Source of the DNA: a virus
IMG/VR virus record: IMGVR_UViG_3300037493_007233
Location: 9,647 to 73,646 of that record
DNA: 64,000 nt
Reading direction: 5' to 3' (one strand)
Shown: in pieces, positions 15,674 through 59,159 of the stretch
Layout of the letters: each line of letters opens with the position of its first letter
How positions within the stretch are numbered: position 1 is the first letter of the stretch
Translations under genes and position numbers: made by a program
The notes under the pieces: generated by a model
The model's input: the letters and a program-made list of their open reading frames with translations, nothing else
The model's database searches: none
What the model was told of the DNA's origin: nothing

Positions 15674-15994
15674 TCACATGGTGAAAGTTTGGGTCATATC
15701 TGGATTGGTCCTATAAATAAACTGTGGACCTGGTGACATAATTACAGAAATTCCATCAGAGAGTGTTTGCAAGCCCTGGATAAAGTTTTGGACGTCGTCT
15801 TTTTTCGCTGGTGGAAAATTAAAATGAACCATAACATCATTCACAATATCATCCAAAGATTTTTCAAATTCCCCAGTGTCGTGAAATGACATGTATTTCT
15901 CGTACTTCTTTACGAAATCTTTAATTTCAGCTTGCTCTACCTCAGATAAAGATAGGTTTGAAACAAAGTCATCAAATTCTAAAATTCTTCTCAT
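15674..15994 (-). CDS. Hypothetical protein, putative virion-internal
   Basis: N-terminal RILEFDDF motif. Confidence 0.6.
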   Translation of the reverse strand: MRRILEFDDFVSNLSLSEVEQAEIKDFVKKYEKYMSFHDTGEFEKSLDDIVNDVMVHFNFPPAKKDDVQNFIQGLQTLSDGISVIMSPGPQFIYRTNPDMTQTFTM

Positions 15995-16015
15995 GAAACC
16001 ATTTCTAATATTTTA

Positions 16016-16023
16016 GATATATA
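16016..16023. promoter_or_regulatory. Putative late promoter GATATATA between divergent genes
   Basis: Motif recurs upstream of at least 13 starts. Confidence 0.6.
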
Positions 16024-16049
16024 TTTAATCAATTTATAAACTTACTACA

Positions 16050-16373
16050 ATGACAGAAGAAAACATCGACCCGGATCAGGAATTTTCAATTCAAGACAGC
16101 ACAGAAGAATTTGAAACTGGTGAAGAATCATCTAACGATTACCAACCAGCTGAGACAGATTTCGATCAAGATTCTGCAGTAGCCGATCAAGACTACGATC
16201 AAGTAACCGAACCAGCAGACCAGCAATCATTTTCTGACACCTCTGATATTTCACAGCCAGCTCAGAGTATTGAAGCATCTACACAAATTTCGGAACCCGA
16301 ACAAAAAACCCCATCACCACAAAGTTTTAGGGTAATGAGGTTTGAGGATTTCGTTAGCCAGCCGAACGATTAA
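16050..16373 (+). CDS. Highly acidic hypothetical protein
   Basis: D/E/Q/S-rich; C-terminal VMRFEDF motif; GATATATA upstream. Confidence 0.7.
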   Translation: MTEENIDPDQEFSIQDSTEEFETGEESSNDYQPAETDFDQDSAVADQDYDQVTEPADQQSFSDTSDISQPAQSIEASTQISEPEQKTPSPQSFRVMRFEDFVSQPND

Positions 16374-16552
16374 TCTTCGGAAGAAGTACTTCTACCAAGA
16401 TCTCTTCTGATAAGCTTTCTCACGTAATGTGAAACTGAAACTGGAGGCTCACCTTTAGTTAAAGCCTGCTTTGAGATCTTTTTTCCAAGCTCTTCTAAAT
16501 CTTCTGTAGAAAGAAGTACTTGTATTTTTTCGGTTTTTTCTTCTCTTGCCAT
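16370..16552 (-). CDS. Ribbon-helix-helix-like DNA-binding protein
   Basis: KIQVLLS..DLEEL...SVSHYVRKLIRRDL. Confidence 0.55.
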   Translation of the reverse strand: MAREEKTEKIQVLLSTEDLEELGKKISKQALTKGEPPVSVSHYVRKLIRRDLGRSTSSED

Positions 16553-16586
16553 TTTTATTGGTGGTTTTAATTTTAATTGCTATCTG

Positions 16587-18047
16587 TTACTCGAATTTTA
16601 TTCCGGTATGTGGTTTACCATTAGACTTGTATTGATTGTAGTCTTTATCGAAATTTTCTGTTGCTATAAACTTAGTATCTGGATTTACCATGACACCCAT
16701 AGCTTTCATCGTATTTCTATTTATTAGGAGGGGAGTACTTTTATGGGTTCTATCTAATATAGCAACTTTCATCGTGTAGGGATTGCCTAAGAATTTTATT
16801 TCCATTTCTACCGTTGGATACTTAATAACTCCTTTACTGTGGATGCCCCCTGAGATATCAGTTTGCCCAATTATCTTCTTTTTAAATTTCTTTTTTCCTA
16901 TTTCGAAATATAGGGTTTTTCCTTTTTCTTCGACCTTATCTCCGTGAAGTACACAGCAAAGAGTCCCATTCCCTGTATCAAATTTCCCTATCACTTTTCC
17001 TAGTCCTTCAACCTCAACAGTTTCCATATATCCAACCTCGATGCTGGGAAGAATCCAGTTATTTTGATCCATTAAGAAATCAATCACGTCATTTACAATA
17101 GGCTTTCCAAGAGCTTCAGAAATTCCCTCCGTTCCAGGCGAAGAATTTACTTCTAACACATAAGGCTTGTTGGTCTTCTGATCGATCATGATATCAACTC
17201 CACTCCAATTACACCCAGTTTCCCTGGCTGCTTTGAAAGCAATTTCCTCAATTTCTTTAGTTAATTTTACTTTTTCAACAGTTCCACCCAGAGAATAGTT
17301 AGTTCTAAAGTCTTTACCTACGGAATTTCTTCTCATTGCTCCTATAATTCTATAGTTTCCAGGATGATCTAAATCTCTTATATCGATGTTTTTTATTAGA
17401 ACGTGAATTCTAAGATCATATTTAGAGTCTATTTTTTCCTGCAACAGAACTTCGCCGGTCTCATCCAGTTTCTTAATAGTCTGGAAAACAGATTTTAATG
17501 AATTAAAAGAATCTACTATTGAAACTCCGATTCCTTTCGATCCTGTTAATAACTTCATAACAACAGGAAATTTTCCTCCTATAGTCTTTACTGCTTCCTC
17601 CATTTTTTCTTCTGAAGAAAGGATTGCATATCTGGGAACAGGAACCCCAACATTTTTTAAAATTTGACACGTGGAAAATTTATTCTCACAAATTTCCATA
17701 GGAAGAAGTCTGTTGACTATAAAATATCTTCCGGCTTCAAGTGTTCTTAATATCTCTTTATTGTGAGTGCTTTTAAGAACCCCAGATCTTGCTACTATTA
17801 TAGTAGAATCGGGGTAAGCACTAGCTTCTTGTTTTCCGTCGCTAATTAAATATCCTCCATCGATTTTTTTTAACTCAGTTAAATCTATGTCTAGGACATT
17901 AATCTTAATTTTCTTCTTTTTACATTCTTTTTCGAGGGACCGGGAAAATTCATTTGTTCCACCTCCAATAAGAACAACCATATTGGGTTTTACTGACCTA
18001 GCTTCGTTCAGAAATGTTTCGAAGTCTACTATCCTATTAAAGGTCAT
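16587..18047 (-). CDS. rimK: RimK-family ATP-grasp ligase fused to C-terminal RimB-like aspartic protease
   Basis: ENKF, GSKGIGV, LLQE, DFRTNYSLGG, GVDI, LEVNSSPG; C-domain GKFDTGN and LLINRN. Confidence 0.85.
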   Translation of the reverse strand: MTFNRIVDFETFLNEARSVKPNMVVLIGGGTNEFSRSLEKECKKKKIKINVLDIDLTELKKIDGGYLISDGKQEASAYPDSTIIVARSGVLKSTHNKEILRTLEAGRYFIVNRLLPMEICENKFSTCQILKNVGVPVPRYAILSSEEKMEEAVKTIGGKFPVVMKLLTGSKGIGVSIVDSFNSLKSVFQTIKKLDETGEVLLQEKIDSKYDLRIHVLIKNIDIRDLDHPGNYRIIGAMRRNSVGKDFRTNYSLGGTVEKVKLTKEIEEIAFKAARETGCNWSGVDIMIDQKTNKPYVLEVNSSPGTEGISEALGKPIVNDVIDFLMDQNNWILPSIEVGYMETVEVEGLGKVIGKFDTGNGTLCCVLHGDKVEEKGKTLYFEIGKKKFKKKIIGQTDISGGIHSKGVIKYPTVEMEIKFLGNPYTMKVAILDRTHKSTPLLINRNTMKAMGVMVNPDTKFIATENFDKDYNQYKSNGKPHTGIKFE

Positions 18048-18068: not shown

Positions 18069-18076
18069 TATATATC
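18069..18076 (-). promoter_or_regulatory. Putative late promoter GATATATA
   Basis: About 20 nt upstream of rimK start. Confidence 0.6.
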
Positions 18077-19677: not shown

Positions 19678-20439
19678 TTATTTTTCAATCACACCAACCG
19701 CAGTCGAAGTATCGGTTTGGTCTGAAAAGAATACGATCCTGTTTTCGTGGATGTAGCAAAAACAAGATTCGGTATCCACGTAATTCAAGTGTGATTTGTA
19801 AATAGATGAATCTGCAGACTCATCCGAAGTAATGTCCGATTTTCCAATATTTAATTTGTAATCAAACGAATCTCCAGTTACTTTTACCGAATCACTAGTC
19901 ACTCGGAAAACCAAAAGCTCCTCAGAGTTTGACTCCATTCCGCAAAGTGAAATTAGAGAAGAGAAATCGGAGTTGTAGATTTTAAAGTTGCTAAGTGCAT
20001 CTTCTTTTGAATGTACAATTCCTAAGATCTTGTCTTCAACATACGATAGGAGAGAAAGATCAGCACATCTTAATTTGATTTTCAAGGAAGCTGAAACTAC
20101 CTGTAGTTCAGTTGCTACACACTCACCTTCAACGGTAGAGGTCGAGATATCGATAAAAATATCCTCTTCCGTTCTAAAGTGCTTAAAGCAGTCCATCAAC
20201 CTTGTAACATCCATCAACCCAATTTTGATCCTATCACATTTAAGAGATGCAAAGTCTGTGAGTGCGTCGAAAATCTGGTCGTTGCTGATGCCCGCATATT
20301 TCATTACAGATTTATCGGGGGTGTGAACTTTTGAGAAAAGCTTGTCTTCGGTCAATTCCAGTAAAACACTCTTGTCTACTACTTTAAGTTTCTTCAGGAA
20401 AGAAATTAGATTACTGGTACTTGTTACTCTTATCTTCAT
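19678..20439 (-). CDS. Putative sliding clamp (gp45/PCNA-like)
   Basis: 253 aa, two-domain alpha/beta pattern, directly upstream of polB C-subunit. Confidence 0.55.
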   Translation of the reverse strand: MKIRVTSTSNLISFLKKLKVVDKSVLLELTEDKLFSKVHTPDKSVMKYAGISNDQIFDALTDFASLKCDRIKIGLMDVTRLMDCFKHFRTEEDIFIDISTSTVEGECVATELQVVSASLKIKLRCADLSLLSYVEDKILGIVHSKEDALSNFKIYNSDFSSLISLCGMESNSEELLVFRVTSDSVKVTGDSFDYKLNIGKSDITSDESADSSIYKSHLNYVDTESCFCYIHENRIVFFSDQTDTSTAVGVIEK

Positions 20440-21917: not shown

Positions 21918-23066
21918 TTATGCAGTCTTCTTAGATTGATCCTTTTCTTTTGTCTGTACTAAAGAAGCAGATGCTAAAACTTTAGGTGAGATATCGTCGA
22001 TCTGAACCAGAGCAAAATCTATTTCCTGCTGATTTTTGGCTTTCATGTCGGCAAGGATCTCACGAAGGTCTGCAGAGTTTTTCAAAACTATACATCCTGC
22101 CGAATGTGAATCCACGGTTGGGGTAGATCCTGATCTTAATCCTCTGTGAATATTTATACCACCCTGACCATTTTCTTCCTTTCCAGGAGAATATGTGGTA
22201 AAGGTAGCTTTAGAGGGATCGTCTACTGGTTCATATCTCTGTATTTTAATACTTTCAGCTTGAACAAGTGCTTCGTATTGACCTCTATGTTTGCCTATCT
22301 TATATCTATAAACCCCGGGTTGCATGATAGCTGGTCCATTAGGATTAACAACATCTTTTGCTCCAGTTGCAACATAGTAATTACGGAAAGATTTAACCAA
22401 AAAGAAAGGTCCAGGAACTGTAGTTGCAGGAAAGAATTCAACATTCTTTTCTTTCTGTGGGCTCATGAGGAAAACCACATCAGTAAATCTGTTAGGATAA
22501 TTCTTTTTGGTTGAAATTTTATTTCTGAGACCAACAAGATTGTACTGATCGAAATTCATTTCCTTAGAGAGTCCTTCAGAATCTAAAATTGCCTTTAAAC
22601 CATCCCAAGTTATAACATTAACATCATCAAATTCATAGTCTGAACTCTGTGGTAGTAATTTATAATCTGGCTTCTGGGTTTTATTTCCAGCAGCATTAAG
22701 ATTCTTAATGTTTTCGTCTGCAGCTTTTTTATTAGCGGAGTCTTTAGAAAGATCTGCTTCGACCTCTTCAGCGGTTGCCGGTGAATCCGATGGTATTATT
22801 TTAGCTTCTTCCCATGCTGCTTTAAGGTTAGGATCAGCATCGACAGCAGCAAGTAAATCCCCACCAAATTTGGTTGCGAAGAAAAGGTCACGAATAAATG
22901 TTTTACTAACATTTTCTTTTTTACCAGCTTCCTTACTAGAACCTTTTAAAGCTCCCTTAACTTCTGCTCCTTGGGCTAGTGCTTTTTGAATTATTGTTGG
23001 CTGGGCAAGGGAAGCCTCGTTTATTTCACCAAATTCGCTAAATGATAAGATTCTTTTGGGCATCAA
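21918..23066 (-). CDS. Putative virion protein with C-terminal YkuD/L,D-transpeptidase-like domain
   Basis: ATTVPG, PGVY, GINIHRG...SAGCIVL; N-terminal ILSFSEF..INE. Confidence 0.6.
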   Translation of the reverse strand: MMPKRILSFSEFGEINEASLAQPTIIQKALAQGAEVKGALKGSSKEAGKKENVSKTFIRDLFFATKFGGDLLAAVDADPNLKAAWEEAKIIPSDSPATAEEVEADLSKDSANKKAADENIKNLNAAGNKTQKPDYKLLPQSSDYEFDDVNVITWDGLKAILDSEGLSKEMNFDQYNLVGLRNKISTKKNYPNRFTDVVFLMSPQKEKNVEFFPATTVPGPFFLVKSFRNYYVATGAKDVVNPNGPAIMQPGVYRYKIGKHRGQYEALVQAESIKIQRYEPVDDPSKATFTTYSPGKEENGQGGINIHRGLRSGSTPTVDSHSAGCIVLKNSADLREILADMKAKNQQEIDFALVQIDDISPKVLASASLVQTKEKDQSKKTA

Positions 23067-23435: not shown

Positions 23436-23437
23436 GT

Positions 23438-24498: not shown

Positions 24499-24846
24499 TC
24501 AAAATGAAGATTTAAGCCATTCCCTAATTACAGTCTCTTGACCTTTCTTATTCTTGGGAATACCTCTCCACTTTGACTTTAGTTCCTTAGCTAGAACTAA
24601 AATTTCTGCACAAAGTTCGTAATTCTCTTCTACCTCCCAGTATTTAATCATGCGGGAAGCAAAATCATCGATCTTTTGTTCGCAATCAAAGATATAAATA
24701 AATTCCTCGCCTTGGGTTCGGAGAGCAACTAGGAAAAGATCCTGAACTGCTCTATCGATATGATTTTTCAACACAGAAAACTGGGGATGATCCTCAAAGG
24801 ATGATCGCCAATCGTTATATGGGAAGTTTTCTGAGTTGTTAGACAT
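24499..24846 (-). CDS. Hypothetical protein with UVR-like motif
   Basis: EENYELCAEI. Confidence 0.55.
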   Translation of the reverse strand: MSNNSENFPYNDWRSSFEDHPQFSVLKNHIDRAVQDLFLVALRTQGEEFIYIFDCEQKIDDFASRMIKYWEVEENYELCAEILVLAKELKSKWRGIPKNKKGQETVIREWLKSSF

Positions 24847-25102
24847 TCTTTTTGTTCTCGGCCAGAAAATTATATATCTCTATGTAAGTGGATTGATCTG
24901 CTAAATCTAAAAAAGTAAGGCTTAGTTTATTTAGAAGATCGTTGGTTTGTTCCTCACCAAAGTTTTCAAATAATACCTCTTTTTTGATTCTGGCTTCAAT
25001 TTCACTATCACGTTGATATTTTACTCTTTCGTCCTTCAAAGATAAAATTTTATTTTCAAATTCTTTGAACGCTTCTAGTTCTTTTTTTCCAATTTCTTTC
25101 AT
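24839..25102 (-). CDS. Hypothetical protein
   Basis: 87 aa ORF, coupled to neighbours. Confidence 0.6.
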   Translation of the reverse strand: MKEIGKKELEAFKEFENKILSLKDERVKYQRDSEIEARIKKEVLFENFGEEQTNDLLNKLSLTFLDLADQSTYIEIYNFLAENKKNV

Positions 25103-28643: not shown

Positions 28644-29177
28644 TTACTTCTTTGGTGTAAAATAGATCTCTTCAATCTTGATAGGAGCTATTTTTGCTTC
28701 ATATCCTTTATCTTTAAGAGAAACTGGAATACCAATTACAAATTCCTTACCGTCAATCATCTCTACTCTATCAACCATGAATTCAGAATCGAAGTAAATT
28801 GTGCGTTGATTTCCAAATCTATCAACATCAAAATCAAAATCTCCTTCTCTATCATCATCGATATCAATACCTCTTTGAGCTTTCATCTTACGGGCAATTC
28901 TTTCTCTTTCCTGAGCAATAATATCTTTAACGTAATCTGGTGCTCCCTTTCCTTGTGTAGGAACTTCCGCAATCACAACAATTTCTTCAATCTCACCCAT
29001 TTCTTTTTTCTTAAGAAGATCCTTAAGTGTAGCAGCAACCTCTGAATATTTAACATTCATTTCTGGCTTGGTGTTGATGTTCTTTCTGAATTCCAATTCA
29101 TTAAAAACGGGAATCGCAGAATATGTTGATTCACTTACTTCTGCTGAATAGTCTTCAAAAATTTTAACGTATTTCAT
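28644..29177 (-). CDS. Hypothetical protein, putative virion-internal
   Basis: MKYVKIFEDY..VSES; GATATATA at 29197-29204. Confidence 0.65.
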   Translation of the reverse strand: MKYVKIFEDYSAEVSESTYSAIPVFNELEFRKNINTKPEMNVKYSEVAATLKDLLKKKEMGEIEEIVVIAEVPTQGKGAPDYVKDIIAQERERIARKMKAQRGIDIDDDREGDFDFDVDRFGNQRTIYFDSEFMVDRVEMIDGKEFVIGIPVSLKDKGYEAKIAPIKIEEIYFTPKK

Positions 29178-29195: not shown

Positions 29196-29480
29196 TTATA
29201 TATCTTCATAGGGAAGCAATTTGGTAACCTTGATTTTAAGCTGCCCGTTGCCTTTGATTAATCTGTGCCATACCCCGGCTGGTACAAATATTTCTCCAGA
29301 GAAAGGAATTGGTAACTGGTTATCAAATTGGAATTTCCAGTCTGTATTTTCTACTACTTGGATTATCCTATCCTCTAGATCGATGTGCCATTTCAGTTCA
29401 TTCGTCTCGAGTTGGGGATCAAACAAACGGAGAAATATATTTTCCCCGAGACCTTTTTCTTCGAATGGGAGATTTACCAA
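29196..29480 (-). CDS. Small cupin-fold protein
   Basis: WHIDLEDR...IFVPAGVWHRLIKG. Confidence 0.65.
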   Translation of the reverse strand: MVNLPFEEKGLGENIFLRLFDPQLETNELKWHIDLEDRIIQVVENTDWKFQFDNQLPIPFSGEIFVPAGVWHRLIKGNGQLKIKVTKLLPYEDI

Positions 29481-30040
29481 GGGTTTTTAGATTTAATGCC
29501 TAATAATTTTCCATATCTTGCAACGTTACAAGACCAATATCTAGCTTTCCATTTAGGTCCTGGCTCTGAGCATCTGTGTCTTGCTCTGAAAGATCTAGAC
29601 CTAGCAGGATCGTCGTTTCTAATCCTCATTCCAGGTTGCCCAAATCTTACCATTACAACCTTTCCCTTATCATTTTTTGTATAGACAGCGAATTTTCTTG
29701 GAGCATTTGGAGTTCTGAAAGGTTTGTTTAAATCTACTTTTCTTCCCTGATATTCAGCTTCGAAAATATCATCATATTCAAATGGGATATCTAAAAGTAC
29801 TTCTCTACCTTCAAAAGTAGCTTTTTGACCTGCATCGGTGCTTATCAAAAAAACATCATCAAAATCTAGATCGATCTTGTTTTCTGCCCAAAGCTGTCTG
29901 GATTCATTGATAAGATCTAACCACGCATCAGATTCGATTCGATAAACGCTCTCCAATAGGGAAATATTTTCCTCTAAGTGGTAAGCTAATCCCTCGCTTA
30001 TTTGTGAGGTGCTGAACGAATTGAAGTCATGTATTCTCAT
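29474..30040 (-). CDS. DUF6321-like phage protein
   Basis: VRFGQPG...SFRARHRC...ARYWSC; likely start MRIHDF at 30040. Confidence 0.6.
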   Translation of the reverse strand: MRIHDFNSFSTSQISEGLAYHLEENISLLESVYRIESDAWLDLINESRQLWAENKIDLDFDDVFLISTDAGQKATFEGREVLLDIPFEYDDIFEAEYQGRKVDLNKPFRTPNAPRKFAVYTKNDKGKVVMVRFGQPGMRIRNDDPARSRSFRARHRCSEPGPKWKARYWSCNVARYGKLLGIKSKNPW

Positions 30041-32488: not shown

Positions 32489-32920
32489 TTATCGATTAGA
32501 TTTATTTATCCTCCTCCACGAAAAATCAGTATCCAGTTTGAAGTGTCCAAGAAATTGATATTTCCCGTTCCATTCTTCAGGTGAAATTAAGCTACAGAAT
32601 TTTTCACCATCATCTTTAATATAAACATAAATTTCAGAACCAACGTTTGGTTCAAACGAAAGTTTGGAGTCCCAAATCATTTCGTTATCTGAAAATTCTT
32701 GAAACAAGGACTCAATTTGTTCCTTGATTTCTTCAGCCCTTTTTGAAAACTTGTGATTAGCCTTTGCTAAACTATTCGCCTTAAACAATGCTACATCAGG
32801 GAGATCAATCTTAGGCCCAGATATATTTGTCGAATAAGTTTTTAGAAAAGAATCATATAGGTTTTTCTGAGGATCAAAGACTACTGCATCAGGCAGATTT
32901 TTCTTCTTTCTTCTTTCCAT
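32489..32920 (-). CDS. DUF2452-like protein
   Basis: Y..N..GPKI, FEPNVG..YVY, SLISPEEW. Confidence 0.65.
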   Translation of the reverse strand: MERRKKKNLPDAVVFDPQKNLYDSFLKTYSTNISGPKIDLPDVALFKANSLAKANHKFSKRAEEIKEQIESLFQEFSDNEMIWDSKLSFEPNVGSEIYVYIKDDGEKFCSLISPEEWNGKYQFLGHFKLDTDFSWRRINKSNR

Positions 32921-33539
32921 CTTTGGTCTTTAATCCTAACGCTTTTGTAACTGCTTTGTATACTTCTTCGCTCCCTTGTGAAGCGTCGAATTTTTTTAAT
33001 CTTCTACTCTTCTTATAAAGGTCGATTAAAGGAGAAGTTTTTTCCTCGTATGTTCTAAATCTCTTACCTACCACCTCAGGGTCTTTATCGTCTTCCCTGT
33101 TTTCTTTCTCTGCTCTTTTTAGAATTCTCTTTTTGGCTGTTTCCTCATCTAAATCTAAATAGATCGCATGATTTAGACCTACCCCAAGTTTTCCTAAGAG
33201 TGAATCAAGCATCCCTGCTTGTTTGATTGTTCTTGGGAATCCATCCAGAATAATTCCTTTAGAAAGATCTACTTTGCCAAGTTCTTTTCTCAGCATTTTG
33301 ACCATAGTTTTATCATCAGCATATTCGCCTTTAGCAATTTTTGCTTTAAGCTCTTTATCGTCAGAATTTCTGATCAAATCTCCGGTTGAAATGTGGGTGA
33401 ATCCGTTTCTCTCCGCCAATTTGGTCGAAAATGTTCCTTTACCCGAACCAGGAGGTCCCATGATAATTAGGATTTTTCCTTGAACATCGGGTAATTCCCT
33501 TTCGTTCAAAAACTCTGCAAAATTTTTAACGGTTTCCAT
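32889..33539 (-). CDS. adk: Adenylate kinase (short LID)
   Basis: GPPGSGKGT, HISTGDLIR, LDGFPRT..QA, REDD. Confidence 0.93.
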   Translation of the reverse strand: METVKNFAEFLNERELPDVQGKILIIMGPPGSGKGTFSTKLAERNGFTHISTGDLIRNSDDKELKAKIAKGEYADDKTMVKMLRKELGKVDLSKGIILDGFPRTIKQAGMLDSLLGKLGVGLNHAIYLDLDEETAKKRILKRAEKENREDDKDPEVVGKRFRTYEEKTSPLIDLYKKSRRLKKFDASQGSEEVYKAVTKALGLKTKDGKKKEEKSA

Positions 33540-36455: not shown

Positions 36456-36475
36456 TTTTCTTTATAATTATTTTT

Positions 36476-37459: not shown

Positions 37460-37494
37460 TGTTTTTATTTTTTTCTCTTAATTTTTAGTTATTT

Positions 37495-37962: not shown

Positions 37963-38049
37963 ATTTTATTTTTTCTTCCTTCCCCCTGGTAACATTGGGT
38001 TTTTTATATATCAAGTTGACTTTGAAACCAGAGGAAAGTTGTGAGGGTT

Positions 38050-39508: not shown

Positions 39509-39826
39509 ATGTCTAGCAGGGTTAAAAGTTTCGAAAATTATATTCAAGAAAGCTTCCCACCAGGAGTGGTAGAGGTTCCTGGCCAGTGGTACAAGGATAA
39601 TGTCAATTCAAGAAACTACAGGCCAGCTCACACGCAGATGCCAAGTGTTGTTGACGATCTTTACAACAGGACAGATCTTTATACTTATTTAGACCAATTG
39701 GCTGAGGAGGAAGAGTTTCAGAAAATGCTATCTTCGAATGATAAAGATTCGAAGAAAATTGTGAATTACGTTAAAAAAAGAATTCACGAGGAGCTTTCAC
39801 ATTCTGCAAAGGTAGATTCTAAATAA
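39509..39826 (+). CDS. Hypothetical protein, putative virion-internal
   Basis: VKSFENYIQES; GATATATA at 39495-39502. Confidence 0.65.
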   Translation: MSSRVKSFENYIQESFPPGVVEVPGQWYKDNVNSRNYRPAHTQMPSVVDDLYNRTDLYTYLDQLAEEEEFQKMLSSNDKDSKKIVNYVKKRIHEELSHSAKVDSK

Positions 39827-41599: not shown

Positions 41600-42067
41600 T
41601 TACTTTTCTTGAAGCATTTTCATTGCTTTAGAAAAATCCATAAAAGTCTGAATCGTTCTTTTCTTTTTCTTCTTTTTATTGTCATTCTGAGCAGCAGGTG
41701 TACCTACTGTTAAACTATCAAACTTATCACCAGATCCTTGTTTAGCGACATCATAAAAGTTTGCATTAGTACCTGGACCCTGTGGAGGAGTAACAGGTCC
41801 CATACCAGGAGTGGTATTAAGTGTAGCCATTGCTCCACCTCCACCCATATCGTTTTCATCTAACTCGTATTCTGGGTATCCACATTCCCACACCATTTTC
41901 TCTACCTGCCAAGCTTCAGTGCAATATTTGTTTTCGTTCATCCACCTAGACAATTTTTCGATTATATCTCGAGGTGTGCAAGAAGATTCAATAACTGGAG
42001 TATCATCACAGCAGCAAAGACAAACTACGGTGTGTCCATTAGTGGTTGATCCAGTTGGGAAGTACAT
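41600..42067 (-). CDS. Hypothetical protein (Gly/Pro-rich, basic C-terminus)
   Basis: Likely start MYFPTG at 42067; C-terminal IQTFMDF. Confidence 0.6.
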   Translation of the reverse strand: MYFPTGSTTNGHTVVCLCCCDDTPVIESSCTPRDIIEKLSRWMNENKYCTEAWQVEKMVWECGYPEYELDENDMGGGGAMATLNTTPGMGPVTPPQGPGTNANFYDVAKQGSGDKFDSLTVGTPAAQNDNKKKKKKRTIQTFMDFSKAMKMLQEK

Positions 42068-42068
42068 A

Positions 42069-42314
42069 TTATCCATTTTGTTTTTCAATTATTTGTGCAA
42101 CATTTCTGGCAAATATCCTGATGGTTTGTCCAGATTCATTTAGTGTTATATAACCAATAATATCGCCATAAACATCTCTAATAGCATCGGTTACAAGTAA
42201 TTTATTGCCATTAGAATCAATGATGTTTTTGCCAGACAACCTATCAGTCTCCTTAGACCTATTTATTCTTTGGCCTATTTGATCTACGGTTCTTTTGCTA
42301 CAGGTATTACACAT
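42069..42314 (-). CDS. Hypothetical protein
   Basis: 81 aa; GATAAATA at 42322-42329. Confidence 0.6.
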   Translation of the reverse strand: MCNTCSKRTVDQIGQRINRSKETDRLSGKNIIDSNGNKLLVTDAIRDVYGDIIGYITLNESGQTIRIFARNVAQIIEKQNG

Positions 42315-42324: not shown

Positions 42325-42738
42325 TTATCTATAGTCTCCTCTGAGTTCTTTTCTTCTTAAATAATTAAAAAGATATCTAAGAGCCTTAGAATATTCTTTG
42401 GCAGTTTTAAAAGGCTTTGGGAATCTTCTAATGTCATTACCATTACCCTGTGGAATCTCATCAGAAATAACCGGGTTGTACCTTCTCACTATTCCTGTTG
42501 GGTGAATAGTGTAGAATACATCCCCGTGACCTTTTTCTTTTTCCTTATGCTTAGTTCTGGTAAATTTCAAAGTATTATTAAGATCCTGTTGATGAGAATG
42601 AACCTCTTTAAACCCAAGATCTATGATACTTCTGTATTCTTTGCTTTTTCTAACCTTCTCTATATCCAAATCTCTCCTATCCTCAGTTTTGTATTCTTTT
42701 CTGGGGTCGTATTTAGAATATTCTAGAAGGTTATTCAT
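42325..42738 (-). CDS. Hypothetical basic protein
   Basis: 137 aa ORF. Confidence 0.65.
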   Translation of the reverse strand: MNNLLEYSKYDPRKEYKTEDRRDLDIEKVRKSKEYRSIIDLGFKEVHSHQQDLNNTLKFTRTKHKEKEKGHGDVFYTIHPTGIVRRYNPVISDEIPQGNGNDIRRFPKPFKTAKEYSKALRYLFNYLRRKELRGDYR

Positions 42739-43196
42739 TACTTCTTGCTCTTGTTTATAAACTCTCTGTAATCGGCTAGATTTTGCATCTTTCTACCTTT
42801 CTTAGGAGCTTTAACATCCGGATTAAGAACTGGAGTGATTGGTGCAATTCCACCTCCAGGAGAAAGTCCAGGAGTGTAGGAAGGAATACCTTTGCTTGCT
42901 ATAATAGGAGAAGTTGCTCCCGCAACAGCAATTCCTTTTTCGTCCAATTCTTCCATTTCCTCAGATTCTTTCATTGGCTTGTCTTTATAGGGCTTGCCAG
43001 CTTCAACGTAATGAGGAAGTTTCTTTGATTTGGTAGATGCAAACTTATCCAGTTCCTTATCTGTCATATCGCCATCCGCAATTGACTTAATTTCTTTCCT
43101 GTATTTTGGGTCAATGTCTTTAAGCTTAAGAAGTCCTTTTCTTAAACCCCATGCTTGTCCCATAACTGCTTGCTGTGCTTTTGATACTGAAGGCAT
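42738..43196 (-). CDS. DUF3008-like protein
   Basis: MPSVSKAQQ..MG, MTDKELDKFAST..KKLP. Confidence 0.6.
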   Translation of the reverse strand: MPSVSKAQQAVMGQAWGLRKGLLKLKDIDPKYRKEIKSIADGDMTDKELDKFASTKSKKLPHYVEAGKPYKDKPMKESEEMEELDEKGIAVAGATSPIIASKGIPSYTPGLSPGGGIAPITPVLNPDVKAPKKGRKMQNLADYREFINKSKK

Positions 43197-44197: not shown

Positions 44198-44731
44198 TTA
44201 TCTACTTAAAATGTAGATTCCTCTGTGAGATCCTTCTTGCATAGCCCACTCTGGACCTAGAGCAGAAATAAGCATCGATTTTGCGAATTCTTCATAGTTT
44301 TCTATGTCCAAGTTATCGTGCATTTCATCAACCATTCTAACTACTTTAGGATTTTTTTCCAGGTAGTTGTTTATACATCTGTTAACTTGCTCAAAGAATC
44401 TAGAAAGATCATTTCCTTCAAGTTTGAATTTTTCGTCGTTAATCTGGGGAAGTGTAGCTTTATTGATAGCAATGTCCTCAATTACTTCAGATCCTATTTC
44501 GTTAACGTTTAATACAGCATGAGAATTTTTAGGTCCCTCTAAAGTTTCGTATTCTGAGTATTTGCCGATGAACATAACGTACCCATTTTGTCCACCCTCT
44601 TCCATATCTAATTGAAAGAAATAATAGAACATATCGCCATCTCTTCTAAACAAAAATGGTTCGGTACCAAACCCATCTGCTTCTTTTAGATGATCTAAAA
44701 ATTGACCGTAGCTTTTAATCCTTTTTTCCAC
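44198..44731 (-). CDS. Hypothetical protein, putative virion-internal
   Basis: IKSYGQF...LKEA; GATATATA at 44749-44756. Confidence 0.65.
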   Translation of the reverse strand: MEKRIKSYGQFLDHLKEADGFGTEPFLFRRDGDMFYYFFQLDMEEGGQNGYVMFIGKYSEYETLEGPKNSHAVLNVNEIGSEVIEDIAINKATLPQINDEKFKLEGNDLSRFFEQVNRCINNYLEKNPKVVRMVDEMHDNLDIENYEEFAKSMLISALGPEWAMQEGSHRGIYILSR

Positions 44732-46676: not shown

Positions 46677-47126
46677 TTATTCAAAAAGAAAATTTTCTAT
46701 TTCACTACTAAAACTCCTTGTAAAAGAAAGGGGTCCAAATTTTTTGTTAAAATCCACACTAATTATTCCAGAGATTACCATTTGTGATATTCCTTTTAGT
46801 AAACTTCCCACTAGGATTTTCGATTTTGGCTGTAAATTCTTATGATATAAGTTGATTAATAGCGGGGTAAATATTTCCAATGGTGGTATTTTAGATTGAT
46901 AGTTTAGAATTCTATATACTTCTTTTTCGATAAAATAAACAGATTTGCCTCCAACTATAACCTCCATATTTCCATCTTCTGCCTTTAGAACTACTCCTTT
47001 ATGCCCATTATCAGTCCTAAATAAAATTAGATCTTTATCCCTTAATACAAGGTTTACACCGTCTCCATCCAGTATAATATCAAGAGCACTGTAGATTAGA
47101 TCTGTATGTTTAAGTGTAAATTCCAT
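46677..47126 (-). CDS. Hypothetical protein
   Basis: 149 aa ORF in operon. Confidence 0.6.
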   Translation of the reverse strand: MEFTLKHTDLIYSALDIILDGDGVNLVLRDKDLILFRTDNGHKGVVLKAEDGNMEVIVGGKSVYFIEKEVYRILNYQSKIPPLEIFTPLLINLYHKNLQPKSKILVGSLLKGISQMVISGIISVDFNKKFGPLSFTRSFSSEIENFLFE

Positions 47127-48031
47127 TAAGCTACTTCTGTTGGGATAACGTATCCAGCATTATTTAAATACCTGATCAAATCCTGTCTTATTTCTTCTAC
47201 TCTATCGCTATATTTAAAATTAGGAGAGGTTACTATATTCCAAACCTCTTCAAAGGTTTTAACGTTGTCTGGTTTTACTCCACCGCCAAACATGAGATCT
47301 AATAATTCCTGTGGATCCCTTGTTACAAAAACAGATTGACCTTTTACTGTATCAGGTCTTTTAAGTCTCTTAGTTGCCCCCTGGAATGTTTTCTTATTCT
47401 TGTAGATCCCATCATTTAGCCTTAGAGCATAGGTGTCGAAATCTACAATATCTCCATTCTCGTCTCTCTTGGTTACATTCTTTAGGGCAGACAATATAGC
47501 CTGGAAAAGCCAGTTCCTGTGTGCAGATTTATACTTAGATTCATTCTTTCTATAATCCGGTGAATAGAATATGAATTTTGCCCAATCCATATTTGAGATC
47601 GGAATTAGATCCAGCTGAACTGTTCCGTTTTCTGTATCGCCTTCGATTGGCCAAGCTATGCTAAGAACGTTTATTCCCTTCATTAGCTTCATGTCTGGCT
47701 CATAGCCAAGTATTGCTGGAAGCTCAGACGAAAGCTTGTCGTATAGAAACTGAAGTGATTGATCTGCAGAAATACCAAATTTTTGGGCTAAGAATTCCTG
47801 AGCTATACCAAGATCAATATCACCAGAAGTATCCGAAGGACTTTTCTTTTTTCCTATGCTACCAATCAGAAGATAATCCTTATCAAATTCGCCGTCTCCA
47901 ATCAAGGGGAATAGAACTTCCCTCATGTGTTGAATTGTCTTTTCAACCTCTGACTCTTTTATTGGTCTAGATGATTTGATAGCAGCACCTCCCTCGAAGA
48001 GCTTAGAAAAAGAAGAAAAACTCTGGATCAT
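47126..48031 (-). CDS. Pol-beta superfamily nucleotidyltransferase
   Basis: LIGSIGKK...SGDIDL, VQLDL, SKYKSAHRN. Confidence 0.7.
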   Translation of the reverse strand: MIQSFSSFSKLFEGGAAIKSSRPIKESEVEKTIQHMREVLFPLIGDGEFDKDYLLIGSIGKKKSPSDTSGDIDLGIAQEFLAQKFGISADQSLQFLYDKLSSELPAILGYEPDMKLMKGINVLSIAWPIEGDTENGTVQLDLIPISNMDWAKFIFYSPDYRKNESKYKSAHRNWLFQAILSALKNVTKRDENGDIVDFDTYALRLNDGIYKNKKTFQGATKRLKRPDTVKGQSVFVTRDPQELLDLMFGGGVKPDNVKTFEEVWNIVTSPNFKYSDRVEEIRQDLIRYLNNAGYVIPTEVA

Positions 48032-48552
48032 TTTAATTTGTAATATTTGCCAGCAGAATTTACATAATCAACATAGATCTCTTCTTCCTCAGTTTTGGGA
48101 TTATTTATGTCAAAATCCTTACCAAAACTCTTCTTTCCGTTTTCTATTGATTTTTTATAAAAAACCTCGTGATCTTTTTCTTCGTTCCTACCGGTCTTCT
48201 TAATATCTTCTCCCCACTTTTGAAGAACCTCTTGCTTTTTACCTTTTAATGTTTTAGAATCGTATTTTTCTAAATCAGATCTTTTACCAAATAGATTAGC
48301 AACTCCTCTTCCAAGGCCTAGAAGTCCAGAGGCAGCCCCCGATACTAATCTTTGTAATGCCTGGCCAGGTCTTTCTGCCATGGCATCGAACCAATCCTTT
48401 CCTCCTTCGTAACCTGCTACCTCAGCTTCTGGGTTTTCAGCTTTAACTCTAGCCTGCATTTTGCCGAGCTTCCTCGCCACAATATTCTTATCCCCGGTTA
48501 CTGAGTATTTTGATTCGTTTAAAAATCCTTGAAAATTTAAGATTTTGGTCAT
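48028..48552 (-). CDS. Hypothetical protein, putative virion-internal
   Basis: ILNFQGFLNES; GATATATA at 48572-48579. Confidence 0.65.
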   Translation of the reverse strand: MTKILNFQGFLNESKYSVTGDKNIVARKLGKMQARVKAENPEAEVAGYEGGKDWFDAMAERPGQALQRLVSGAASGLLGLGRGVANLFGKRSDLEKYDSKTLKGKKQEVLQKWGEDIKKTGRNEEKDHEVFYKKSIENGKKSFGKDFDINNPKTEEEEIYVDYVNSAGKYYKLK

Positions 48553-50561: not shown

Positions 50562-50798
50562 TTAAAATAGTTTTCCCTTGGAGGGTTTATTGTTCTTATT
50601 CTTACTTATATCTACTGTGGTAGTTCTTGTCGGTTTCAATTTTGGTGCGACGTATGTAACAGATTCGCTAATCTCACCCAAATTTTCCAGAACAGAAACC
50701 TCGTGGATAGAAATAGGGAATTTTAGCTTCCCGTCATTCTCCTTCTCAAATGAGTTTTCCCAAGATTCTGTTTCGTCAACGTAGAACATATCAAACAT
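50562..50798 (-). CDS. Hypothetical protein
   Basis: 78 aa ORF. Confidence 0.55.
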   Translation of the reverse strand: MFDMFYVDETESWENSFEKENDGKLKFPISIHEVSVLENLGEISESVTYVAPKLKPTRTTTVDISKNKNNKPSKGKLF

Positions 50799-51855
50799 CC
50801 ATGAAATATGTTAGGTCTAAAACTTCGTGGGTAAAATAGTTTTCAAACCTTTTAACCTTAATTTTCTTTGCTCTCAAATAGTTTACAAGATCGTTTAAAT
50901 CCCACTTTTTATTTATCGGCAAAGCGTGATCATCTAGAAATCTTTTCCAATTAAAGACCATATGTCCTTTTGAAAGTAGTTCTGAAGTCTTTTCTTTACC
51001 TGCTTTATCCCAGTCGTACCAATATTGAACATTATCAAACTCAAAAGGGAATTTGTTTTCTATCGAGCAGAGTCCAACAGAATTACTCCAAAGCCAAGAA
51101 TCCATTGGACCTTCAAAGATTGTTATCTTTTGATCAAAAGAGATAAATCCAATATTGAACACATGAGATACTGGATCTATTTTAGTACACTCGTCTAGAA
51201 ATTCTGGGTCTTTTACACCCAGCAATTTTTCCCATATTCCGCTGAGTTTATAGGTGTAGTATTTTGCGCCATGGAAAGTGGAAGACATGTTTCTTACCTG
51301 CAATCCAAGAATATCATCTTCTCTGGTTAAATTCAGGAGATAAAGCTTTTGACCTTTGTGATCCCAAGCAAATCTTTTATCTGGAAGTTGATTTCTCCTT
51401 AAAACGTAAGTTTCTATGCTAGAACCCTTAACATCCTCCAATCCCATCATTTCCATAAATTTAGATCTGGGGATGACCACTTTTTTGAAATCTGCATCAA
51501 AGAACAAGGAAATATCGACGTCACCGTAAACGGTCCTTCTTTTATCCCTTCCCTCCTTAATTACTTCTAGTATTTCAGTTCTTTCTGATTGATTTAGTTC
51601 GGAATTAACCCCAAAATCACGGAATAAAGTATATCCGTCTTTAAACATACCACAACCACCATTGTAGCATTTAAAACTTAATGTGTTGAGGTAAAAATTT
51701 CCTCTTTTCTTTTTTGAATTATTGCTATCTCCGCAATATGGGCAGGAAAAATTCATTCGATTTCCTGCTAAATAAATCTTCTGCTTCGTAAAGTCAGAAG
51801 GAAAAGCTTTTTTTAAAACTCCACTTAATAAATCCTCAATTCTCTTAATTTCCAT
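50791..51855 (-). CDS. T4 gp61-like DNA primase
   Basis: CPYCGDS..KKRG, KCYNGGC, TOPRIM EGPMDS, DWD, DLND. Confidence 0.88.
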   Translation of the reverse strand: MEIKRIEDLLSGVLKKAFPSDFTKQKIYLAGNRMNFSCPYCGDSNNSKKKRGNFYLNTLSFKCYNGGCGMFKDGYTLFRDFGVNSELNQSERTEILEVIKEGRDKRRTVYGDVDISLFFDADFKKVVIPRSKFMEMMGLEDVKGSSIETYVLRRNQLPDKRFAWDHKGQKLYLLNLTREDDILGLQVRNMSSTFHGAKYYTYKLSGIWEKLLGVKDPEFLDECTKIDPVSHVFNIGFISFDQKITIFEGPMDSWLWSNSVGLCSIENKFPFEFDNVQYWYDWDKAGKEKTSELLSKGHMVFNWKRFLDDHALPINKKWDLNDLVNYLRAKKIKVKRFENYFTHEVLDLTYFMDV

Positions 51856-56455: not shown

Positions 56456-57110
56456 CTTTTAAATTCTCAATCAAGTAAAGACAGATCCAAGAAGCATCAA
56501 TGATATCATCCATTGGTTTGTTTACAGATCCTGAACCAGTAATCCAATTCCCTTTGTGTGTATCCAATATTTTTGTTAGGTGCGAAAAATTTGTTTCTGG
56601 TACCTGTTTATCAATGATAGCGTGATAAAGTTCATCTTTCTTGGCATTTCCCTTCTTGGCAAATTTCTTAATTGATGTTGGTGAATACACAAAGAAATTC
56701 TCGGAGCCAATGGTATCTACTATTTTCTTTCTAATAAGAGCAGTTGCCATAGAAATGTCAATCAAAGCGTTACCATTAGAGGAAAAACTTAATCCTTCCA
56801 TAGCGATACTGATACTTTGTCCATCGATAAGAGGTTCAACATGTGTCCAGAAAACGTCCACAAGATCTTGAAAATAATCAATCTTTACCCGTTCTCTTGC
56901 TGAATATTCCTCCGGCATTTCTTTTTTGGTTAAGAAGAAAAGGTCTATATTCTGATCTTTTTCCAAAATAGAATATGGCTTATCCTTACTTTTTCTAAGA
57001 GATTCGGGTGTTCTATCAGACCTCGTCAAACTGCCCCATTTAAAATTTTCGCCATTAAAAACACAAAAAGCAGGAGAATTCAGGGAGAAATCTATACCAA
57101 CATAAATCAT
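56442..57110 (-). CDS. RuvC-like Holliday junction resolvase
   Basis: GIDFSLNSPA, MEGLSF, PTSIKKFA..GNAKKDE, DDIIDA. Confidence 0.75.
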   Translation of the reverse strand: MIYVGIDFSLNSPAFCVFNGENFKWGSLTRSDRTPESLRKSKDKPYSILEKDQNIDLFFLTKKEMPEEYSARERVKIDYFQDLVDVFWTHVEPLIDGQSISIAMEGLSFSSNGNALIDISMATALIRKKIVDTIGSENFFVYSPTSIKKFAKKGNAKKDELYHAIIDKQVPETNFSHLTKILDTHKGNWITGSGSVNKPMDDIIDASWICLYLIENLKDAKK

Positions 57111-57148
57111 AAATAATTATACTAAGTTTTTTAAATAAGTTCTATAAC

Positions 57149-58567
57149 TTAGATCCCCTCATATGATCCGTTGAACTGAAGCCTGTCAGTAGGTCTCCAA
57201 CCGAATGGATTATTGACATCAACTGCAACAGCGGGAACTGAAGTAGTAATAATCGAAGAAGAACCTACAGCACCAGAATAACTTCCAGTTACTATCCCTG
57301 CGTACCAAATAAAACTAAACTGATCTACCATAGAACATGGGAATTGAATTCCATCAGCATCTACTGCGTTAACGGGTAAGCTAAAACTCCAAGCCCCCGT
57401 TCCGTATGATGTAGTTGACCCAGCAGTCATCTCAACTCTTACAAAAACCGTTTTTCCTGCCGTGGTATAAGACCCTCTTAATATTCCGTTACCTATAACT
57501 GGTTGAGGGCTAGAAGCACTTGACCAAATAACAGAATAAGATAGCCAAGAAGAATTACTAATTCCCGCTCCTGAGGTTCCTGATGAACCAGAAGTACCTG
57601 ATGAACCAGAAGTACCTGAGGTTCCTGAAGATCCACTTGTTCCAGAGGTTCCCGATGTACCTGATGTTCCAGAAGTTCCATTGGCACCGGATGTTCCAGA
57701 AGAACCAGATGTCCCAGAGGTACCCGAGGTACCCGAGGTACCTGAAGTTCCATTAGTACCGGATGTTCCAGAGGTTCCAGAAGTTCCATTGGCACCGGAT
57801 GTTCCAGAAGTTCCATTAGAACCGGATGTTCCAGAAGTTCCTCGTGTTCCAGAAGATCCACTTGTTCCGGAAGTACCAGCAGATCCTGACCCGCTTGTTC
57901 CGGAAGACCCAGAAGTTCCAGAGGTACCAGCAGATCCTGAGGACCCACTTGTTCCGCTAGATCCTGAGGTACCACGTGTTCCTGAGGTTCCAGCAGATCC
58001 TGAAGAACCACTTGTCCCTGACGTTCCAGCAGAACCTGACGTTCCAGCAGATCCCGAAGAACCACTCGTTCCTGACGTTCCTGACGTTCCTGTAGATCCT
58101 GATGATCCAGTTATTCCAGAAGTTCCTGACGAACCGCTCGTTCCCGATGTTCCTCTTGTACCTGAGGTACCAGCCGATCCTGAAGAGCCACTTGTCCCGC
58201 TAGTCCCAGCAGAGCCCGAGCCTGTTCCTCCGCCCGTTGAATTACCATTCATATTCGAGAATGTAACGGAAACAGAGGGGTCAAAAGAAAAATCAATAGT
58301 TGCTAGGGTTCTTTCCGGATTGGTAACTAATCCTTGTATTGAAGAAATTACCTCGCTGAAAAGTTGATAGCCATATTCTGTTTTTGAAAAATATACTATA
58401 GTTCCATAATAAAACCTGCTAGAGGTTAAACTTGATCCAGTAAAAACGCTTGTAAAATATAGATAGCATCCGTCCTGGACCGCTTGAATCTCAGACAGGG
58501 AATCAAGTGTGAAAGAAGTGTAGAGCGTGCTTCCTCCTGAATAATATTTTATCTGGATATTTTTCAC
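57149..58567 (-). CDS. Virion fibre-like protein with long G-[T/S]-[S/A/N/R] tripeptide repeat and beta-rich C-terminal domain
   Basis: About 220 aa of GTSGTSGSSG-type repeats. Confidence 0.75.
   Translation of the reverse strand: MKNIQIKYYSGGSTLYTSFTLDSLSEIQAVQDGCYLYFTSVFTGSSLTSSRFYYGTIVYFSKTEYGYQLFSEVISSIQGLVTNPERTLATIDFSFDPSVSVTFSNMNGNSTGGGTGSGSAGTSGTSGSSGSAGTSGTRGTSGTSGSSGTSGITGSSGSTGTSGTSGTSGSSGSAGTSGSAGTSGTSGSSGSAGTSGTRGTSGSSGTSGSSGSAGTSGTSGSSGTSGSGSAGTSGTSGSSGTRGTSGTSGSNGTSGTSGANGTSGTSGTSGTNGTSGTSGTSGTSGTSGSSGTSGANGTSGTSGTSGTSGTSGSSGTSGTSGSSGTSGSSGTSGAGISNSSWLSYSVIWSSASSPQPVIGNGILRGSYTTAGKTVFVRVEMTAGSTTSYGTGAWSFSLPVNAVDADGIQFPCSMVDQFSFIWYAGIVTGSYSGAVGSSSIITTSVPAVAVDVNNPFGWRPTDRLQFNGSYEGI
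57570..58235 (-). repeat. Degenerate 9-bp coding tandem repeat (Gly-Xaa-Ser)
   Basis: Units such as GTTCCAGAA/GTACCTGAG repeated throughout. Confidence 0.9.
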
Positions 58568-58569
58568 TT

Positions 58570-58899
58570 TTATGCACTAACTATTGTTTGAGTAAAAATG
58601 AATCCAGGTGATTGGAAATCAAGGGTTACTATCTGTGGAAATGTTTCTAATTGTGCTATAGCATCTATCCAAGATGTTTTCATAAAGGAAACATCGGAAC
58701 CTGTAGTTCCGTAAAAAGCCAGCTTCGTAGAAAAGTTATTGAGGCTTGGTAATACTGTAGTTGTATTTACCGAATCAAGAGAAATAAAAAAACCAGTGGC
58801 CCCAGCAAAAGTTGAACCAACAGAAGAAGGATTTACTGCAAGACTTAAAATATTTCCATTACTATCCTTGCCGTACTTTATTTGTATCAGTCCCGACAT
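58570..58899 (-). CDS. Hypothetical protein, likely structural
   Basis: 109 aa; resembles N-terminus of 57149..58567 (IQIKY...LDF). Confidence 0.6.
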   Translation of the reverse strand: MSGLIQIKYGKDSNGNILSLAVNPSSVGSTFAGATGFFISLDSVNTTTVLPSLNNFSTKLAFYGTTGSDVSFMKTSWIDAIAQLETFPQIVTLDFQSPGFIFTQTIVSA

Positions 58900-58913
58900 C
58901 AGTTGTTATGGGA

Positions 58914-59159
58914 TTAAAGCTTAGGCTCAACAGGTTGGCCAACTTCTCCAGTGTAATTGTAAACCTTTACAAGTTTATCGTAGCACTTTTTCATTTGATC
59001 GTCTGAAAGACAATCTACTAGGTCATTTAAGACTCTCTGATCGTTGCCCGAAGCAGCAACCAAAAGATTCTTCATGTGTACTTTGAAGTCGTTTTCACCA
59101 TACATGGGCTGGCCGTACTTCATTTCGTTTATTTTAGCTAAATCTGAAAATTTCTTCAT
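58914..59159 (-). CDS. Hypothetical protein, putative virion-internal
   Basis: MKKFSDLAKINE; GATATATA at 59182-59189. Confidence 0.6.
   Translation of the reverse strand: MKKFSDLAKINEMKYGQPMYGENDFKVHMKNLLVAASGNDQRVLNDLVDCLSDDQMKKCYDKLVKVYNYTGEVGQPVEPKL

Follow-up and report, generated by a model that had tools for sequence, protein, structure and literature searches.

Background

The prohead protease of phage T4, gp21, has the cleavage consensus L/I-x-E. The passages of PMC8442874 that deal with protein loading describe the T4 capsid targeting sequence (CTS), MKTYQEFIAE, as being cleaved off and proteins fused to it as staying in the head, while those of PMC3012670 describe the internal proteins of the T-even phages as diverse, with the CTS alone conserved. 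Here we analyze a peptide of very similar build, hereafter the tag, which begins 12 proteins encoded in a 64,000-nucleotide stretch of viral DNA (the window; positions 9,647 to 73,646 of IMG/VR record IMGVR_UViG_3300037493_007233), which makes up 64 kb of one 73.6-kb virus contig. We consider it likely that the tag is a T4-like capsid-targeting propeptide, greatly expanded in number and extended to enzymes, whose carriers would be packaged, cleaved and injected.

Tag and CTS share a position at the extreme N-terminus, a length of 10-18 residues, carriage by otherwise unrelated proteins and the skeleton M-K-x-[FY]-x-[ED]-F-[IL]-x-E; moreover, 10 of the 12 tags in the window fit the full pattern with a closing hydrophobic-x-Glu, the predicted cut, after which the mature protein would begin. 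Relatives of the window phage encode, as T4 does, an S77 protease and a capsid protein of the gp23 type, and the one relative examined for it has a sigma factor of the gp55 type as well. The clade differs from T4 in the number of tags (some 12 within 64 kb, or about 25-30 in each genome, where T4 has a handful), in predicted cargo that includes enzymes of 216-486 residues and of mixed charge rather than small basic proteins, in the variable spacing between the aromatic pair and the Glu (offset 5-10), and in a protease that continues into a scaffold-like domain built of 14-residue repeats. The lineage of the hosts is also very remote.

Two other kinds of system invite comparison. Bacterial microcompartments and encapsulins address enzymes to the inside of a shell by a terminal amphipathic helix on a flexible linker; these peptides resemble the tag in being short terminal helices on unrelated enzymes and differ from it in serving non-viral shells and in remaining uncleaved, those of encapsulins being C-terminal as well. 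The sections of PMC5694885 on propeptides report that phiKZ-like head-internal proteins are cut after Glu by an S77-type protease and that their propeptides, thought to be prohead-targeting, exceed 100 residues in most cases in phages of the phiKZ/SPN3US type and are cut at an A/S/G-x-E motif. The giant phages phiKZ, 201phi2-1 and SPN3US resemble the present ones in the processing of many head-internal proteins after Glu (predicted here), but their propeptides have no common short sequence, whereas here there is a short common tag of 12-18 residues in which the second position before the Glu is hydrophobic. Among the papers listed by the literature searches, supplements excepted, we found no description of such tags in uncultured giant phages.

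Results and discussion

A common N-terminal peptide on unrelated proteins

The 12 window proteins begin with h-x-x-[FY]-x-x-[FY] (h, hydrophobic), and in 10 of them [LIVF]-x-E follows a few residues on. An earlier reading of the letters of the window (the original prediction) had proposed about 15 unrelated proteins with such a motif, 12 at the N-terminus and three at the C-terminus. All 15 strings are present where it placed them; the N-terminal set stands, 10 of its members in strict form, and the C-terminal copies fall within chance, as detailed below. Among the 99 open reading frames (ORFs) of at least 50 residues in the contig, the strict pattern [ILV]xx[FY]xx[FY].{0,6}[LIVF]xE, starting in residues 1-9, occurs in 10, compared with 2 of 22,111 internal positions and an N-terminal expectation of 0.08. 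A variant with a basic first residue, [RK][ILV]xx[FY]xx[FY], is found seven times at N-termini and five times internally (expected at N-termini, 0.20).

Enrichment over shuffled termini was also found. When residues 2-24 were permuted within each N-terminus of the 92 ORFs of at least 60 residues, the mean count was 0.31 and the maximum 3, and the observed 10 was reached in none of 2000 rounds. The patterns had been defined after the list in the original prediction was seen, and two long relatives, G002 (288 ORFs, 85% complete) and G005 (354 ORFs, 99% complete), as well as T4, were used as separate test sets. G002 has 10 strict matches against a shuffled mean of 0.72, a count reached in none of 2000 shuffles, and G005 has 23 against 2.8 (maximum 11 in 1000 shuffles). 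Since shuffles fall so far below the observed counts, composition bias at the N-terminus is not the cause. Codons at the conserved positions mix synonyms (ATT/ATA/ATC, TTT/TTC, TAT/TAC, GAA/GAG), so the signal sits in the protein rather than in the DNA. The control genome, that of Tenacibaculum jumbo phage pT24, has no strict N-terminal match.

The carriers are unrelated, as had been claimed: from residue 23 onward, no pair among the 12 gives a BLAST match better than E = 0.05, and the 12 fall into separate clustering families. The distance from Met to Glu in the window tags is 12-18 residues. From 282 distinct tags the consensus is [KR]-[ILMV]-[KL]-x-F-x-[DE]-F-[LI]-x-E, with the first aromatic at residue 4-9 in most and the Glu mostly +6 or +8 from it (116 of 282; range 5-10); the conserved part lies 6-10 residues upstream of the Glu. 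In form the tag is a short amphipathic helix, and positions -3, 0, +3 and +4 make up its hydrophobic face. It is an add-on: the adenylate kinase domain of one carrier starts at residue 26, the pT24 kinase has no extension, and an AlphaFold2 (AF2) model of another carrier has an unstructured N-terminus.

Related loci from IMG/VR yielded 2,728 ORFs in 306 families, 101 of them with at least three members. In this set, which counts orthologues redundantly, 229 N-termini match the strict pattern, where 3.5 would be expected, and 92 matches are internal. Among the 101 larger families, about 14 real ones are tagged in at least half of their members, and several tagged families have no window member, such as a 447-residue protein with a peptidoglycan-binding-like end. 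Orthologues in about 125 related contigs retain the pattern although individual letters change; a RimK orthologue of 43% identity, for instance, starts MFERIKSLSSYLNE. Conservation rises directly after the Glu, as in ...LFE|GGAAIKTSRRIREDE and ...NE|SDGFGT. Tags are found on about 7-9% of ORFs in the clade, or about 25-30 per genome; a loose scan of G002 listed 28 N-termini, some of them on spurious ORFs.

Relation to the T4 capsid targeting sequence

The T4 CTS scores 15.5 bits on the profile of the tags, a value equalled at 4 of 71,149 positions in G002 and at none of 69,935 in pT24. Conversely, a profile built from the clade tags, those of the window included, was run over the 288 called ORFs of the whole T4 genome (51,438 positions), and the internal proteins IPIII, IPII and IPI took ranks 2-4. 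The likeness to the T4 signal put forward in the original prediction is thus borne out. None of T4 genes 43, 33 and 55 is among the top 25 hits, which argues against a clamp-binding tail motif, an alternative considered below.

Rank 1 in T4, above IPI-III, went to the hypothetical protein gp61.1 (54 residues, L162:18966-19130), which starts MKTFKEFIKE and may be an unrecognised CTS-bearing protein.

Head genes and scaffold repeats of the relatives

The head genes of the clade, as read in its long members, are distantly T4-like. Peptidase_S77 was found in four of five long relatives, and so was Gp23. The G002 head maturation protease (phrog_207, 1.1e-37) lies directly ahead of the capsid gene. 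Upstream of both lie a pair of portal paralogues and the gene of a late sigma factor resembling gp55 (phrog_234, 1.4e-14), which was looked for in this one relative. At least six tagged proteins are encoded in the G002 head module, adjacent to the genes for protease and capsid protein; a tag is also present on the product of the gene that follows the capsid gene in 4/4 relatives, and the capsid protein itself has a conserved ...HSLNE|SAGAY in 4/4. The two portal genes of G002 (L149) are adjacent, at 35507-37111 and 37117-38742, and both match phrog_213 at about 5e-59.

In the relatives, the protease ORF joins the S77 domain to 13-15 tandem 14-residue repeats, YSEYLAENxDxxIx, each ending in a gp21-type L-A-E site (676 residues in G002, L159:6464-8494; also L134-L139). 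The repeats are degenerate in LR756500 and absent from pT24. Repeats, tags and T4 CTS have the skeleton [FY]xx[FY][LIV]xE in common. The array may serve as a scaffold coiled coil, a cleavage array or a docking site. A part as docking or decoy partner of the tag is more speculative, and we treat the common skeleton as a resemblance rather than as a sign of docking. That the tag is simply one scaffold repeat was considered and rejected, as the profile of the 15 G002 repeats did not enrich tags, even though its best single match is a tag. Co-folding of the scaffold-repeat part with residues 1-40 of the nucleotidyltransferase described below, run without controls, scored 0.00 and is evidence neither way.

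No clear FxxF tags were seen in the neighbours of the capsid gene in LR756500 and Lak-B1. In Lak-B1 (table 15), two genes at L161:8464-9702 (+) and 38131-39195 (-) share a different leader, MNKLIKKL[VM]E[SG]LFDD, and several neighbours begin K-L-Y-x-S-[LI]-[IM]-E-like; this leader may be a Lak-specific address tag. At the right end of G005 (262348-270568; L179/L180) about nine small tagged genes lie densely clustered, an arrangement that recalls the variable internal-protein loci of T-even phages.

An upstream motif resembling a late promoter

The original prediction had also noted a motif upstream of most of the tagged genes. In agreement with that claim, 8 of the 12 have TATATA, with [AG]A directly before it, no more than 50 nt from the start. 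Over 61 sites the consensus is (A/G)-G-A-TATATA, in most cases 11-31 nt ahead of the start codon, and in G002 it occurs 47 times against 20.5 expected from base composition, about a twofold excess. Tag and (A/G)GATATATA are associated in the contig of the window (odds ratio 8.75, p = 0.0014), in G002 (8.3, p = 7.6e-7) and in G005 (6.9, p = 5.7e-8). In G002 the motif is found as well ahead of the gene for the protease and of genes that match head-closure, tape-measure-like and tail-fibre proteins. On the strength of these gene associations and of the gp55-like factor, (A/G)GATATATA is probably a late promoter read by a gp55-like sigma factor.

Three tandem paralogues of 367, 260 and 327 residues at G002:147039-149936 (L153/L154) each have their own GATATATA motif, and their first 24 residues are almost identical (MKHLQSFSLFEARKTS...).

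Alternative explanations

The tag could also be a mere substrate site or pro-sequence, cut by the S77 protease or by a ClpP-like protein (11856-12518), through which the activity or turnover of late proteins in the cytoplasm would be controlled, with no loading involved. The hydrophobic-x-Glu ending of the tags fits such a role, as do the 13-15 sites of the same skeleton in the scaffold part of the relatives' protease ORF, and the ClpP-family protein of the window itself begins MKQEFEKFAMSE ahead of an extension. We nonetheless regard this as unlikely: G002 (85% complete) keeps its tags although blastp at E 1e-5 found no match to the ClpP-like protein among its ORFs, the conserved part of the tag lies 6-10 residues before the Glu, beyond what a cleavage site needs, and in T4, according to the relevant passages of PMC8442874, PMC3012670 and PMC5694885, the same peptide suffices for loading.

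In T4, the polymerase, gp33 and gp55 bind the sliding clamp through terminal hydrophobic-acidic tails, and the tag might likewise be an uncut docking motif, N- or C-terminal, for a hub of replication or transcription such as the clamp, where it would hold enzymes at the replisome or at the late transcription complex. Many tagged genes do lie among replication and nucleotide-metabolism genes, the window has a clamp-like protein (19678-20439, with a weak Hus1 match at 0.0033), and C-terminal look-alikes, including that of a primase-like protein, are conserved in orthologues (63/118 and 38/39). We find this quite unlikely in view of the T4 scan, in which internal proteins rank 2-4 and genes 43, 33 and 55 fall outside the top 25; C-terminal copies are no commoner than chance allows, G002 has its tagged proteins clustered next to protease and capsid genes, and a Glu boundary followed by a conserved mature start resembles a cleavage site. 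Least probable by far, in our judgment, is that the peptides have no shared function and reflect AT-rich codon bias at N-termini or an RNA or translation-initiation element. The genome is 35-39% G+C and its N-termini are rich in K, N, I and F, but composition-keeping shuffles never reach the observed counts, synonymous codons vary, AT-rich pT24 has no tags, and the clade profile retrieves the T4 internal proteins; having failed the shuffle, codon, pT24 and T4-profile tests, this explanation was rejected.

Proposed function and points against it

A T4-like propeptide would act as follows. The N-terminal peptide would dock a freshly synthesized protein onto the scaffolding core while the prohead forms, a protease of the gp21 type would remove it after the Glu of [LIVF]-x-E, and the mature protein would be left inside the head and enter the host along with the DNA. 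A late promoter of its own, which most of these genes probably have, would permit synthesis of the protein at the time of head assembly even where its gene lies among replication genes. The tagged proteins are probably packed into the virus particle in this way, and the predicted cargo comprises small internal proteins together with a RimK-type ATP-grasp ligase, an adenylate kinase, a Pol-beta-fold nucleotidyltransferase and a lysin-like protein.

Several points weigh against this interpretation. Protease, capsid and scaffold genes were not found in the 73.6-kb contig of the window, which is a fragment, and the machinery is therefore read from relatives whose marker proteins are 69-79% identical; one of the five long relatives (88% complete) showed neither S77 nor Gp23. 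The search patterns were drawn up post hoc, from data already seen. Two of the 12 tags are imperfect (42738 is without hydrophobic-x-E, and 59159 has it but with Leu as second anchor), and four of the 12 genes have no promoter motif within 50 nt. The isoelectric points of the mature parts range from 4.6 to 9.9, 6 of 12 being below 7, unlike the basic internal proteins of T4, and it would be unusual for a head to contain housekeeping-type enzymes such as an adenylate kinase and an ATP-grasp protein, encoded amid blocks of replication and nucleotide genes. Only 2 of the top 45 hits of the repeat profile are N-terminal tags, with about 2 expected, and the tag profile places the YSEYLAE repeats 34th or lower; as the two profiles do not cross-detect, a direct relation between tag and repeat is unsupported beyond the shared skeleton. 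Cultured relatives are no closer than about 30-57% protein identity, and docking, cleavage, packaging and injection are deduced from sequence, as is the "late" timing of the tagged genes itself.

Should the tag function as it does in T4, one could predict from sequence alone which proteins are carried into the host by a large group of environmentally widespread, uncultured giant phages, and these would include first-strike enzymes and probable counter-defence proteins. The targeting code would be conserved across a very large evolutionary distance, its cargo would extend from small basic inhibitors to metabolic and nucleic-acid enzymes, and natural tag variants would become available for protein-packaging work in T4-type capsids. 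More tentatively, the whole clade (about 220-430 kb, with likely Bacteroidota hosts) might load about 25-30 sequence-predictable proteins per genome by the T4 code, re-timed by late promoters. In that case the CTS code would be ancient and common to T4-type heads from the phages of Enterobacteria to megaphage relatives, and injected proteomes could be read directly from metagenomes.

The tagged proteins of the window

Coordinates in this section refer to the minus strand unless marked otherwise. Gene 16587-18047 encodes a 486-residue RimK-type ATP-grasp protein with the tag MTFNRIVDFETFLNE (18003..18047), a Pfam RimK match (2.1e-33) from residue 121 and a promoter motif at 18069; its orthologues in L006, G002 and G005 are tagged, with differing letters. 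The adenylate kinase (216 residues, gene 32889-33539, tag METVKNFAEFLNE at 33501..33539) is the top profile match in the contig. Its Pfam ADK domain (2.1e-36) begins at residue 26, and the pT24 homologue aligns from its own residue 2 and is thus without an N-terminal extension; the G002 and G005 orthologues have both tag and promoter motif.

A third enzyme, of 301 residues, is encoded by gene 47126-48031, with the tag MIQSFSSFSKLFE at 47993..48031, and belongs to a family (family 11) tagged in 73/96 members. A GS...GDLDLG motif is invariant in 40 sequences, Foldseek gives Pol beta/lambda at E 9e-4, and the AF2 model has a pLDDT of 90.3; from these we take it to be a Pol-beta-superfamily nucleotidyltransferase. 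Residues 1-20 of the model are at 57-65 and residues 10-14 below 50, this minimum of confidence coinciding with the predicted cut. A protein atlas search returned virus-only clusters without names and one NTP_transf_2 lead (33% of one cluster); a Tlde1 match at 0.75 was taken as chance. The gene just before it, 48028-48552, runs into 48031 and encodes a 174-residue protein without a family match (tag MTKILNFQGFLNE, 48514..48552; promoter motif at 48572), whose family (family 10) is likewise tagged in 73/96 members.

The lysin-like protein (381 residues, gene 21918-23063, tag MPKRILSFSEFGEINE at 23016..23063) matches phrog_3000 at 1.3e-20 and, weakly, an endolysin family (phrog_33083 'endolysin', 9.2e-6); its G002 orthologue starts MKSSKVLNFQDFLG, and no promoter motif lies within 50 nt. 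Its start had been placed at a TTG at 23066, which we move to the ATG at 23063. For gene 29474-30040, in contrast, the ATG at 30040 proposed earlier is right and the longer ORF from a TTG at 30055 wrong. This gene encodes a 188-residue protein (phrog_7595, function not assigned) with the tag MRIHDFNSFSTSQISE at 29993..30040 and a promoter motif at 30046, 5 nt ahead of the ATG; the G002 orthologue starts MKILNFGEFRDQISE.

Of the remaining carriers, two have no family match: the 106-residue product of 15674-15994 (tag MRRILEFDDFVSNLSLSE, 15941..15994; promoter motif at 16018), whose G002 orthologue retains ILEFDDFVSNL, and the 177-residue product of 28644-29177 (tag MKYVKIFEDYSAEVSE, 29130..29177; promoter motif at 29197). 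Gene 39509-39826, on the plus strand, encodes a 105-residue protein (tag MSSRVKSFENYIQE, 39509..39550; promoter motif at 39495) of a family (family 32) tagged in 13 of 18 members. Gene 44198-44731, with a GTG start, encodes a 177-residue protein (tag EKRIKSYGQFLDHLKE, 44681..44731; promoter motif at 44749), and in its family (family 15) 51/60 members are tagged and the boundary NE|(A/S)DGFGT is conserved. The tag of the 137-residue product of 42325-42738, MNNLLEYSKYDPRKE (42694..42738), is weaker and without hydrophobic-x-E; in its family (family 19) hxx[FY]xx[FY] is found in 31/40 members and a subsequent hxE in 0/40. Gene 58914-59159 (81 residues; tag MKKFSDLAKINE, 59124..59159; promoter motif at 59182) heads an operon that contains the collagen-like tail fibre gene 57149-58567, and its G002 orthologue is 80% identical.

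A weak additional candidate, absent from the original prediction, is the 87-residue product of 24839-25102, which starts MKEIGKKELEAFKEFENK... (25028..25102; profile score 6.5); the G002 orthologue has LQKFQEFEQE, and a promoter motif lies at 24871. The ClpP-family protein at 11856-12518 (-) (Pfam, 6.7e-58) has a 43-residue N-terminal extension starting with the tag-like MKQEFEKFAMSE; blastp at E 1e-5 found no match to it among the ORFs of G002, which is 85% complete.

C-terminal copies

The original prediction allowed for a tag that works at either end, and this part of it we do not retain. The three C-terminal strings are RVMRFEDF (16329..16352, +), in a 107-residue acidic protein (16050-16373) whose counterpart in G002 has ILSFKDFIKK; IQTFMDF (41633..41653, -), in a 162-residue protein (41600-42088) and kept in 38/39 members of its family (family 22); and LADYREF (42759..42779, -), in a 152-residue DUF3008 protein (42738-43196) that has LVDYRDYIKS in G002. 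A C-terminal look-alike absent from that list, VKRFENYF (50833..50856, -), lies in the primase-like protein 50791-51855 (phrog_47 DNA primase, 4.5e-17) and is kept in 63/118 family members. C-terminal copies made up 4 of the top 31 profile hits in the contig, scanned with a profile built from relatives, against about 2.2 expected, and 5 of the top 70 in G002 against about 4.6; of the 101 families, just 2 real ones retain the motif at this end. Since these numbers are within chance, a role of the tag at the C-terminus is not supported.

Source contig and relatives

The window is part of an uncultured jumbo phage whose nearest named relatives are the Lak megaphages and the Tenacibaculum jumbo phages. 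Nearly all of its genes lie on the minus strand, and they serve replication and nucleotide metabolism, with a short run of tail-type genes at the right end; it encodes a ribonucleotide reductase, a primase-like protein, a ClpP-family protein and a collagen-like tail fibre, and its ORFs match annotated DNA polymerase, topoisomerase II and DNA helicase genes of pT24. No near-identical DNA was found in the phage collection. pT24 is the nearest cultured phage, with matches to 16 of the 99 contig ORFs (E 1e-4); being that distant and without tags, it was dropped as an annotated guide and is useful solely as a negative control.

Relatives in IMG/VR were collected at a helicase locus (79 loci, 42-84% identity) and at the locus of an 817-residue protein (48 loci, 46-90% identity), on contigs as long as 434 kb. 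The G002 capsid protein is closest to its counterparts in the Lak megaphages and in an uncultured phage of 462 kb (43-44%). The parts of PMC12619734 (2025) that define the aquatic "moraphages" give them T4-like core genes, DnaJ/DnaK, a position as sister to the Lak phages and Flavobacteriia as predicted hosts, and the window phage may belong among them.

To the left of the window, ORF shadows at G000:C1:1-6300 resemble a tRNA cluster by appearance, which is interrupted by two paralogous ORFs of 210 and 229 residues. Each is preceded by a GATATATA motif, and both look like GIY-YIG homing endonucleases.

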